A DNA stretch of 64,000 nucleotides from Raillietiella orientalis (taxonomy: Eukaryota): NCBI GenBank assembly GCA_036172245.1, contig JAYWIR010000005.1, positions 5,952,001-6,016,000 of the forward strand. The letters run 5' to 3'. Positions 3,901 to 7,300 of the stretch are shown here, one piece after another. A program made the translations under genes and the position numbers. Under the pieces are notes generated by a model. It was given only the letters and a program-made list of their open reading frames with translations. It did no database searches and had not been told where the DNA came from. Within the stretch, counting starts at the first letter, position 1. Each line of letters opens with the position of its first letter.

Positions 3901-4365
3901 ACAGTGATTGGACTGAGACTGAGTATTCAGTAAGAATATCCCCATTGTAAAACCAAAAGCACGGTAGACGCAACTTCAGGTGCAGCATCAAAACTGACCT
4001 TTTGACTTGGAAAATGAGTGCAACAGACGACACCGCTTGGAAATTATTGCAAGTAGATCCGGCCGAAATGCAAGAGCTGAAGGGGCAGGCTGTAAAGGCA
4101 GGCGAGCTGCATGCATATTTGGGCAAGCATGGATACCAAGGTGACAGCATTCTCGTGGATCTTTGTCGGAACTCCGCGAACTTTGTTTCACATAAGTTTT
4201 GCTGTCGCGTTTACACCTCTGGTGAGTAAGCACATGTTTATACTTCTCCATACATCCTCCCTCCCCTCTTCCCCTCAACTGCTGCTTAAAAACATTATCA
4301 TTTTATTAGATAAAATAGTTTGGTTCCATTGTCTGCACGCACACGACGTCGAGTTAGCGTTTTAA
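994..4365 (+). CDS. CTC1: CST complex subunit CTC1-like (telomere maintenance, OB-fold protein), multi-exon; 5' end uncertain
   Basis: A phase-consistent GT-AG exon chain can be built: 1416-1626, 1678-1776, 1820-2043, 2098-2244, ~2288-2408, 2447-3135, 3180-3281, ~3336-3412, 3461-3679, 3723-3929, 3980-4221, 4310-4365 (TAA). Peptides match vertebrate CTC1 blocks as I recall them, in the same order: FFIIKL..ILIRNPRQFFWHEKL (cf. YFILSL..IIVQVPAQLVWHRAL); NYEGTVTSIDYVDEGILQLD (cf. [20 protein letters not shown]); LIGKLRVGNSGILQITDSLQKLNVLL; VYLP..FRTGDIICIWNV..RSQRNGSVY (cf. VYIE..LLPGARVHFSQL..SRSHNVY); a C-terminal Cys cluster CKCC..C..C; and LLQVDPAEMQEL. Exons upstream of 1416 are not resolved and may start around 700-1000. 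Confidence 0.8.
4302..4307 (-). terminator. Candidate polyadenylation signal of cnc
   Basis: AATAAA on the minus strand about 55 nt downstream of the cnc stop. The same bases form the 3' end of the last CTC1 intron (TTTTATTAG). Confidence 0.4.
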
Positions 4366-7300
4366 TGGGAAGACATTGTGGTGGTCGCCAGATAGCGCCC
4401 ATGGGCCCCATGCTGTAGCAGCCATTCATAGGAACTCATGGATTGATTGTTCCTGCTCCTTAGAGCATTCATAATGTGATGATAGAGGCGCGCTGTCTTG
4501 TCTTTACAGCGAATAAGTTCTTGTTGTAACAACTGTTGTTCTTGAGCCAGTCTTGCACGTTCTTCCTGCTTCTGCCGCACTTCGTCCGTCAAACGGACAA
4601 TCTGGTCCAGCTTCCTCCGGCGGCAGTTTTGAGCCGCCACCTTGTTTTTTCCCCGCCGTCTTATGTCCCGAATAAGCGACAGCTGCGCTTCGCTCAGGTC
4701 GAATCTCGAAAGCCGTTCGTTGAATTCGTCCATGGGCAGCTTTATGATCTCCGCAGCACTTAGAGGTATGTTCATCGAGCGGGCTCGCCGTTCATCGTTG
4801 CTTATCCGCTCCTCTTTCTTCCTCGATGTCATGGACTGGTGGCACGGCAAGCCGTTGCTTTCGTCAGCAGCAGCCGCGTCCTTGCCGTGGTTCGCTGTTG
4901 TGTCTCCGGAGTTGTAGTGCAGCACGTCGCCGGTCGATGGCGGCGACGACCAGTTCAGAGCAGGTTGTGAAGCTGCTTTCCATAAAGTTTAGTTTTTTCA
5001 AGCAGTGAGTCCTCACCTGCCTCGAGAAATGAGCGTTTCCCATAAAGCTGATGTTTCTTTTGAACAATACCGACAGGTTTCTTTTTCGCGCACTCACAGG
5101 GAGACGACGACGCTCGGTACTTATCGAAGCCCTTCTGTGCGACGAAGGCATTCGAGAAACTCGAGCAGCACTCGTTACTGTACTGAATATCCTTATCAGG
5201 TACTTGCGGAAGAAGAGACTCTGCAACAATTTCCGAACTTCTTGGGAGAGGCGTGCAAAAATTATCTAGAACGAAAAAGAGCAAAAACCTCGTTACACAT
5301 TTGCTTGTTCGGTGTACGAAATCGGAAATCTGCTTCGAGTTTTCCTCCTCCGTGTTTCCGGTGTTTCACGAGCGCAGTTCGCCGCCGATCCGCGCACACC
5401 TTTAGGAAGATGCTCGCCGGCGAAAGAAATGCAGGTGTCTCCGGATTCGAGGCTGCTTTCTCACCCGGACTCTTTGTGCGAGGTGCACCGATCCCCCTTC
5501 CGGATCCGCTGTGTGCGTGCCCGGTGCTGCCGCCGAGCTGCAGGGAGGAAAGGACTTTCGTCCCGCCGGCTGTTAGGTCATGACCACCAGCATCCTAGCG
5601 TTTCCTGCTATCCTAAGCGCGGGGTCTCCTTTTCCTCTGCACCACCGCTCGGAACGCGGCGCAATGTAGGGCGCCTACGTGGTCGACACTTCCAAGGGAG
5701 CCCAAACCATCTCGATGACCTTTATATGAATGAAGGTTTCATTCAATCTCTTTTCCTCCCCCCTCCCCTCTCTCTCTACTAAAAGGTTACGTTCAGTCGT
5801 TTGGTTCCAAGCTAAAAGTACGGTGCAACAGGACGCAGTTCTCCATCCACGTCTGTCTGCCTCTCCTGCCTTGCTTCCTACCTCCCCCCCCATCCCCTTC
5901 TGCAGATTCTCCTTTTCAGCTGTGAACTTGTGCTCAGCCAAGGCTCTGCGTTGGCATAGCGCCGCTTCGATTTTCAGCCCTCTCGCGCTGAGGAGAGCGC
6001 TTTCTTGCTCACGACCAATCGAGCGTCCAGGGCCTCGTCCAATCTTTCTTCTCTCTCCCTCTCTCCTCCTTCAAGGTAACGCATTGTGAACCAGGAACCA
6101 ATCTATTTCCGAGGCCTTTTGGAGCGAAGGGAGCAGGCGCGTGCGTTTTGCACAGATGGTCTTCGCTCGCGTCTTGTCCAAGCGATAGCCCTCGTTGGCT
6201 TTTTATTTTCTCCCGCCACCTGGTCGGGGGAGGAGGGGGGGTGATGAGCTCGAGGTTGCTCGGAGCCCCGTGCCCTCCTCCTGCGACATCGCATCTTCGG
6301 CTCCCGTCGCGCACGCCCGCTGTGCTTGGCAAGAGCTCGCCGCTTCGTGCTCCCCGCGGGAGCTCCAAGCGCAACGTCCCGCTCCAGTCGCAGCGACAGA
6401 AGCGTCCGAGAAACAGGGTGGGCAGCCGAGAGGCATCCGTCCCGGAATCCCGAGGCAATTTCGTGCACGAAAGTCGCAAGCGAATTTGGATCCCCGCCTC
6501 GAGGAATCCCGGATGGGCGTTTCTCCCTTCCTTTTTTTTTTCTTTTTTCTTTTTGCTTTCCTTCCCCCCTCCCCCCTTCCTCCTTCTTCGCTCCCCTCCT
6601 CGGTGCGCATTCCGTTTCAGGAACTTCTCCGAATTCAAGCGCATTCGCATCGAAGGACCGCGGCGCCTTCGATGCAGCAGCGGCGGCGATGGGCCGAGCT
6701 CCCGGCGTGAAGATATCGGCAGGGTCCCGGAAGCCCTGCGGGAGCGCGACGTCGCCACTCCAAGGAGGTTCCCGAGATGCCGGATCGTCCCCACCTCGTC
6801 ACGTGATTGCCCCGCCGTGCGACACCCTCCCTCCCCCTACGATCCTCGCACCGGGCGCGTTTGCGCACCGCCTTCGGTTCGGAACGCCCCTGCCCACCGG
6901 TCGCCGTCGTCCATCATGCCGGGAGGCTCCGTCCGCGAATAGGGTGGCTCCGGGAAGTTAGGCGGCGTTCGCGAGCGAACAAAAGAAGTCAGTGGCGCAG
7001 GATCCCGCAGCCTTCCTCAGACCGGTTCGAGGCATCTTCTGGTCATCATGGGTTCCGGACCTCCTCCTCGCGAGGGCTGGGGACCCTGACGGAGCTTTCG
7101 GTCCTCCTCCCCCCGCTGACCGACCCAGGCGTTTTAGGCCCGGGCAGGTCGCCGCAGGGGGAGGGCAGGGGAGGGAGGGGGAGAGGCAAGCAGGAAGCTG
7201 GCGGGTACGAGGACCGGCGATGGGAGCGGCACAGCGCGACCGTCCCGCCTTCCACCGGCTTCCGGGTCCGGTGGAAGGCTCGTCCTCTTGGTGCTTCCTG

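Follow-up and report, generated by a model that had tools for sequence, protein, structure and literature searches.

In a 64,000-nucleotide (nt) stretch of the Raillietiella orientalis genome (contig JAYWIR010000005.1, positions 5,952,001 to 6,016,000 of the forward strand; hereafter the window), the last coding exon of a cap'n'collar (cnc) gene on the minus strand faces the 3′ end of a multi-exon gene on the plus strand with no spacer between the two. The cnc stop codon lies at 4364-4362, and that of the convergent neighbour lies at 4363-4365 in our gene model or, alternatively, at 4227-4229. We interpret this arrangement as a real but ordinary convergent cis-natural-antisense overlap, a passive structure rather than a dedicated regulatory device, and place the probability of this interpretation at about 0.6. 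The letters at the junction, the identity of cnc, the place of its stop and the uninterrupted spliced frame of its neighbour are shown. From the DNA we infer that the last plus-strand exon and both polyadenylation (poly(A)) sites are used, that the mature RNAs overlap and that the overlap has no special function.

At the junction itself, bases 4362-4365 read TTAA, and the plus-frame TAA and the minus-frame TAA interlock within these four letters. Whenever two TAA stops overlap tail to tail by 4 nt they share a TTAA, which is no signal by itself. The letters TTTATT at 4302-4307 are AATAAA on the minus strand, 55 nt beyond the cnc stop. This hexamer (4307-4302 in minus-strand direction) abuts the plus-strand AG at 4308-4309, and its bases are the same as those that make up the T-rich tract of the plus-strand splice acceptor, TTTTATTAG. 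On the plus strand, a hexamer scan of 4200-5600 returned no AATAAA and no ATTAAA; the first plus-strand AATAAA beyond 4365 is at 21,448. Weak plus-strand hexamers are present as GATAAA at 4309-4314, AATAAG at 4512 and 4671, and CATAAA at 4981 and 5041. A preliminary description of the window had the letters and coordinates of the TTAA, of both stops and of the minus-strand AATAAA right, and its statement that the cnc terminal exon lacks a plus-strand AATAAA extends to the whole scanned interval.

By homology, the minus-strand gene is cap'n'collar (NFE2/Nrf family), and the exon that ends at the junction is its genuine terminal exon. The exon is an open frame of 208 codons, and residues 77-168 of its 208-residue translation matched the Pfam family bZIP_Maf (PF03131) with a score of 67 bits against a cut-off of 22 (expectation value (E) of 2.2e-18). 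When the exon was searched against proteins of near length, 515 of 786 candidates matched at E ≤ 0.001; against longer proteins, the count was 1,713 of 3,610 at the same threshold. The best named relatives were cap'n'collar proteins of insects and crustaceans, at 54-59% identity. In tblastn searches with full-length arthropod cnc proteins, all ten matched 4889-4347 (E of 1e-43 to 1e-46), and seven of the ten also matched weakly at 5000-5164 (E of 0.003-0.069). Only the two last exons were found in the window with these ten proteins, the remaining matches having E ≥ 0.17. The identification of a cnc bZIP exon in the preliminary description is thus borne out by the bZIP_Maf score, by the tblastn matches and by the conserved columns described below. 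Its label of 'Nrf2', an oxidative-stress master regulator, is a matter of family knowledge; it would require an N-terminal Keap1-binding region of the Nrf2 type, and the N-terminal exons of cnc were not located in the window.

In an alignment of the exon with seven homologues, invariant columns begin at D65, take in D128-I130 and extend to L200 of 208; the CNC domain immediately ahead of the basic region and the tail motif behind the zipper are both present. The cnc stop is only 8 codons past L200, the last conserved position. Because the conserved columns reach to within 8 codons of it, the position of this stop is solid. The tail itself (4362-4388, minus strand) is short: all seven homologues run on for at least 22 residues after that leucine by our own count, and the shortening coincides with the end of the plus-strand neighbour.

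The plus-strand gene looks, to judge by its reading frame, like a real, fast-evolving multi-exon gene. Nine exons with GT-AG borders, from 1820 to 4365, join into one uninterrupted frame of 640 codons; the introns between them are 235, 38, 44, 54, 47, 52, 50 and 88 nt long. Splicing from 4221 to 4310 gives a protein that ends in YTSDKIVWFHCLHAHDVELAF, and unspliced read-through gives one that ends in YTSGE at the stop at 4227-4229. The acceptor, TTTTATTAG before an A, is followed 9 nt on by a second acceptor (exon from 4319), and both are in frame and lead to a common TAA. The two AGs, 9 nt apart at 4308-4319 (TAG ATAAAA TAG), allow two possible protein ends, which differ by DKI.

We consider it quite probable, on the form of its splice sites and frame, that 4310-4365 is a real terminal exon of the plus gene. 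The alternative stop at 4227-4229 lies within the donor, CTG followed by GTGAGTAA. GTRAGT (R, purine) occurs 18 times in 38,602 positions across the AT-rich portions of the window, or about 4.7e-4 per position, and we estimate the coincidence of a consensus donor falling on a true terminal stop at about 1 in 1,000. A true end at 4227-4229 would therefore be an unlikely coincidence. The preliminary description had presented the interlocked stops as observed; the letters stand, and the exon 4310-4365 that brings the plus-strand stop into play is plausible and well formed but predicted only. For annotation, this would mean that the plus gene probably ends in a tiny exon inside its neighbour's 3′ untranslated region (UTR), an exon that gene-prediction programs could overlook or truncate.

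That the plus gene instead ends at 4227-4229, with exon 4310-4365 unused or minor and the coding sequences apart, is in our judgement unlikely. Under such an ending, contact would be limited to the 3′ UTRs, which would overlap, or only just reach each other, in the interval from about 4230 to 4360. An in-frame TAA does exist there, and the weak plus-strand GATAAA hexamer could be counted in its favour. The consensus donor placed exactly on that stop makes this ending improbable, however; further on there is an acceptor with a T-rich tract, then an exon that stays open in frame. The protein would also lose what appears, by eye, to be the final strand of its C-terminal domain.

Several observations weigh against our interpretation. 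The 88-nt last intron exceeds six of the seven other introns, those six being 38-56 nt long, and the 17 open codons after the acceptor have a chance probability that we estimate at about 0.4, which is not unusual. Homology lends the terminal exon no support, as the searches found no relative of the plus gene. Both the long intron and this missing homology also count in favour of the stop at 4227-4229. Finally, the window is not uniformly compact. Next comes a GC-rich block of 45 kb in which few genes can be recognised; the zero spacing is therefore a local feature and might be due to constraint instead of mere crowding.

In the convergent overlap that we favour, the cnc mRNA would most likely end about 10-30 nt past its AATAAA, near 4272-4292, leaving a 3′ UTR some 80 nt long. 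The plus gene would most likely splice from 4221 to 4310 (or 4319) and end at the TAA at 4363-4365, giving a coding overlap of 4 nt. The cnc 3′ UTR would be antisense to the last exon and part of the last intron of the plus gene, and the plus-gene 3′ UTR would run antisense to the zipper- and tail-encoding part of cnc. The predicted end of the cnc mRNA falls inside the last plus-strand intron, past exon 4310-4365 and 40-60 nt beyond the alternative stop at 4229. With this predicted end, the transcribed regions would overlap under either model of the plus gene, and an overlap of the mature RNAs is likely on geometric grounds. The preliminary description had held that each 3′ UTR must be antisense to the coding sequence of the other gene. 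As geometry this holds: the cnc 3′ UTR would cover the last plus-strand exon and intron in antisense if the AATAAA at 4307-4302 is used, and any plus-strand 3′ UTR beyond 4365 would be antisense to cnc coding sequence. The weight that it placed on the absent plus-strand AATAAA is not supported. The sole control gene in the window, SLC25A44, likewise lacks both AATAAA and ATTAAA over the 700 nt past its stop, with only a CATAAA at 59654; the absence is weak evidence on the length of the plus-strand 3′ UTR and was rejected as proof of a long one.

Among fly antisense arrangements, the tail-to-tail overlap is the most frequent class, and for the majority no effect has been demonstrated. We read the present overlap as ordinary because this class is abundant in arthropods and mostly without such an effect; the arrangement is a further example of a common kind. 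The Drosophila 3′-cis-natural-antisense loci resemble it in that protein-coding genes on opposite strands have last exons that face each other and overlap. At those loci, usually only the 3′ UTRs overlap, whereas here the coding sequences are predicted to touch (4 nt), and each 3′ UTR would cover coding sequence of the partner. In Drosophila cell lines, 371 3′ convergent pairs give small interfering RNAs (siRNAs), and at each expression level the pairs without siRNAs equal or outnumber the siRNA-giving pairs, according to passages of the report concerned (PMC4079977).

The two stops interlocked in one TTAA also recall the 4-nt stop-codon overlaps of compact genomes. Such overlaps are known in prokaryotes, whose genomes are compact throughout and mostly intron-free, and a study of 58 species deals with overlapping genes of prokaryotes in general (PMC2174442). 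Here, by contrast, one stop belongs (in our model) to an 18-codon terminal exon; the gene is an animal gene rich in introns, and genes are sparse over long stretches of the window. Searching metagenomes with the cnc exon yielded 34 loci with 34-60% identity, on contigs of 1.0-5.8 kb. When the plus-gene model was compared with these 34 cnc loci by tblastn, none gave a significant match (three matches, E of 1.8-4.3), and no close relative was among them.

The preliminary description had named the plus gene CTC1, the large subunit of the CST complex, and this name is not borne out. Identity searches were confined to single exons or open reading frames (ORFs). Six plus-strand ORFs matched no Pfam family at E ≤ 1, and eight exact exon translations matched no CTC1 or RPA family at E ≤ 10, the sole match being to an unrelated HEAT family (E of 0.12). 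A phmmer search of four ORFs against the chain sequences of the PDB (E ≤ 10), which presumably include the structure of human CTC1, gave no match to CTC1, RPA70 or Teb1; three of the four ORFs had no match at all, and the fourth had four unrelated weak ones (E of 0.12-1.9). When the 239-residue ORF that includes the largest exon was searched with phmmer against 1.84 billion representative sequences, the only two matches were tandem-repeat proteins aligned over 6-8 short stretches, which we rejected as spurious. The ESM Atlas returned no usable match for the 229-residue exon or for the 70-residue zinc-cluster exon (recognition scores of 2190 and 1083), and an AlphaFold2 model of the 229-residue exon, computed without an alignment, was unusable (mean predicted local distance difference test score (pLDDT) of 31.9).

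The likeness to CTC1, judged by eye, lies in a large, poorly conserved protein with a cysteine cluster near its C-terminus. The cluster, CKCCGRRLSSRFCNYAGC, has the spacing C-x2-C-x8-C-x4-C and lies about 110 residues before the C-terminus of the plus-strand protein. In human CTC1, the C-terminal OB-G bears a zinc ribbon of four cysteines resembling that of RPA70 OB-C, as a preprint describes (bioRxiv 10.1101/815886). By eye, the plus-strand protein may be an OB-fold protein with a zinc ribbon, similar to CTC1. Four OB folds (D-G) are described for the human protein, whereas the approximately 300 residues of the plus protein after the 229-residue exon would, by our own reckoning, leave room for two. 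When single exons were examined, none of the sequence, profile and fold tests tied the plus protein to CTC1, and we regard the assignment of the gene as CTC1 as tentative and rather doubtful.

The preliminary description had also raised the possibility that the overlap is a regulatory device. In such a device, the two genes, when both are transcribed, would repress each other by transcriptional interference or endogenous siRNAs (endo-siRNAs), or the cnc 3′ UTR would mask the plus-strand acceptor, coupling oxidative stress to a telomere or replication factor. We consider this improbable. The geometry would allow it, the cnc poly(A) signal and the plus-strand acceptor tract being the same bases, and the spacing is locally tight in an otherwise non-compact window. 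There is also an arthropod precedent with a proven effect in Drosophila melanogaster: in the role of a natural antisense transcript, the ppk29 3′ UTR influences the mRNA level of sei, its convergent partner, in a manner that depends on the endo-siRNA pathway (PMC3953951). That pair is likewise a convergent arthropod pair with one stress-related partner. The genes themselves are unrelated to those studied here, and the ppk29/sei case has evidence from genetics, 3′ rapid amplification of cDNA ends and the RNA interference pathway, whereas the cnc pair is known from sequence alone. Against a device stands the Drosophila survey, in which most convergent fly overlaps failed to yield siRNAs even with both partners expressed (PMC4079977). 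Moreover, the telomere half of the proposal depends on the CTC1 label, which no search backed. In the searched literature, no paper mentioned both cap-n-collar and natural antisense, and, going by titles and abstract openings, none of those that mention CTC1 and natural antisense dealt with such a gene pair.

A regulatory link between oxidative stress and telomeres is thus unsupported speculation. We give very little credence to the specific scenario in which strong cnc transcription, or pairing by its 3′ UTR, would block the last plus-strand splice, so that a form ending in SGE and missing the last 18 residues would be made and an OB-fold, possibly CTC1-like, DNA-end factor disabled. If the overlap were functional, a conserved stress regulator would be tied to its neighbour through RNA alone, and the junction would be a compact natural example of one sequence serving both as poly(A) signal and as splice acceptor.

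It is highly improbable that the plus-strand model is a decaying pseudogene or a non-coding transcript, in which case the interlocked stop would be meaningless: the spurious phmmer matches, the lack of a Pfam family, the low Atlas scores and the poor pLDDT would all fit such a reading, but nine consecutive exons with canonical splice sites hold a 640-codon frame open, unlike decaying sequence, and the observed/expected CpG ratio of 0.47 over bases 1-4000, against 0.8-1.0 in the neighbouring block, would fit a methylated, transcribed gene body.

Table 1. Positions of the features at the convergent junction and elsewhere in the window.
Feature	Position	Strand	Basis or remark
TTAA with both stop codons	4362-4365	both	coding sequences overlap by 4 nt if the last plus-strand exon is used
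cnc terminal coding exon (CNC domain, basic region, zipper, short tail, TAA 4364-4362)	4362-4975	minus	homology
Last cnc intron, 41 nt (GTGAGG...AAAG)	4976-5016	minus	flanking exons join in frame
Penultimate cnc coding exon	5017-5265	minus	in-frame join to terminal exon; weak tblastn matches
AATAAA, nearest canonical poly(A) signal past the cnc stop	4302-4307	minus	direct reading
AATAAG, then a T/GT-rich stretch; candidate weak poly(A) signal of the plus gene	4512-4517	plus	inside cnc coding sequence
Upstream exon of the plus gene	1678-1776	plus	gene probably extends further upstream of 1678
Coding exons of the plus gene	1820-2043, 2279-2408, 2447-3135, 3180-3281, 3336-3413, 3461-3663, 3716-3929	plus	GT-AG borders
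Penultimate coding exon of the plus gene, ending in FVSHKFCCRVYTS	3980-4221	plus	acceptor cttcag/GTG, donor CTG/GTGAGTAA
Putative 88-nt last intron of the plus gene; donor GTGAGTAA contains in-frame TAA 4227-4229	4222-4309	plus	model
Proposed terminal coding exon of the plus gene, 18 codons, DKIVWFHCLHAHDVELAF, TAA 4363-4365	4310-4365	plus	model
SLC25A44-type mitochondrial carrier gene, three exons, introns of about 235 and about 40 nt	59675-60943	minus	best relatives arthropods, 48-57% identity
Isolated CLIP domain (regulatory domain of arthropod clip proteases)	about 43378-43527 (ORF 42862-44013)	minus	Pfam, E of 2.1e-07

The cnc exon, the SLC25A44 gene and the CLIP-domain exon all indicate an arthropod without a close relative in the searched libraries. 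Bases 1-4000 have 37% G+C. The block at 5300-50000 (about 45 kb) has 55-71% G+C and the CpG ratio of 0.8-1.0 given above, and its flanks are AT-rich, with 34-40% G+C. Long open stretches occur in all six frames of the block, which looks non-coding; Pfam matched one of 28 long ORFs in it and none of 37 further ORFs. Giant cnc introns, an upstream region or an unmethylated domain are candidate explanations of the block. Among 37 minus-strand ORFs neighbouring the CLIP domain, Pfam detected no protease domain. Two tandem repeats also lie within the GC-rich block, one at 33788-34061 (25-nt unit, 10.9 copies, 66% matches) and the other at 21261-21375 (61-nt unit, 1.9 copies).

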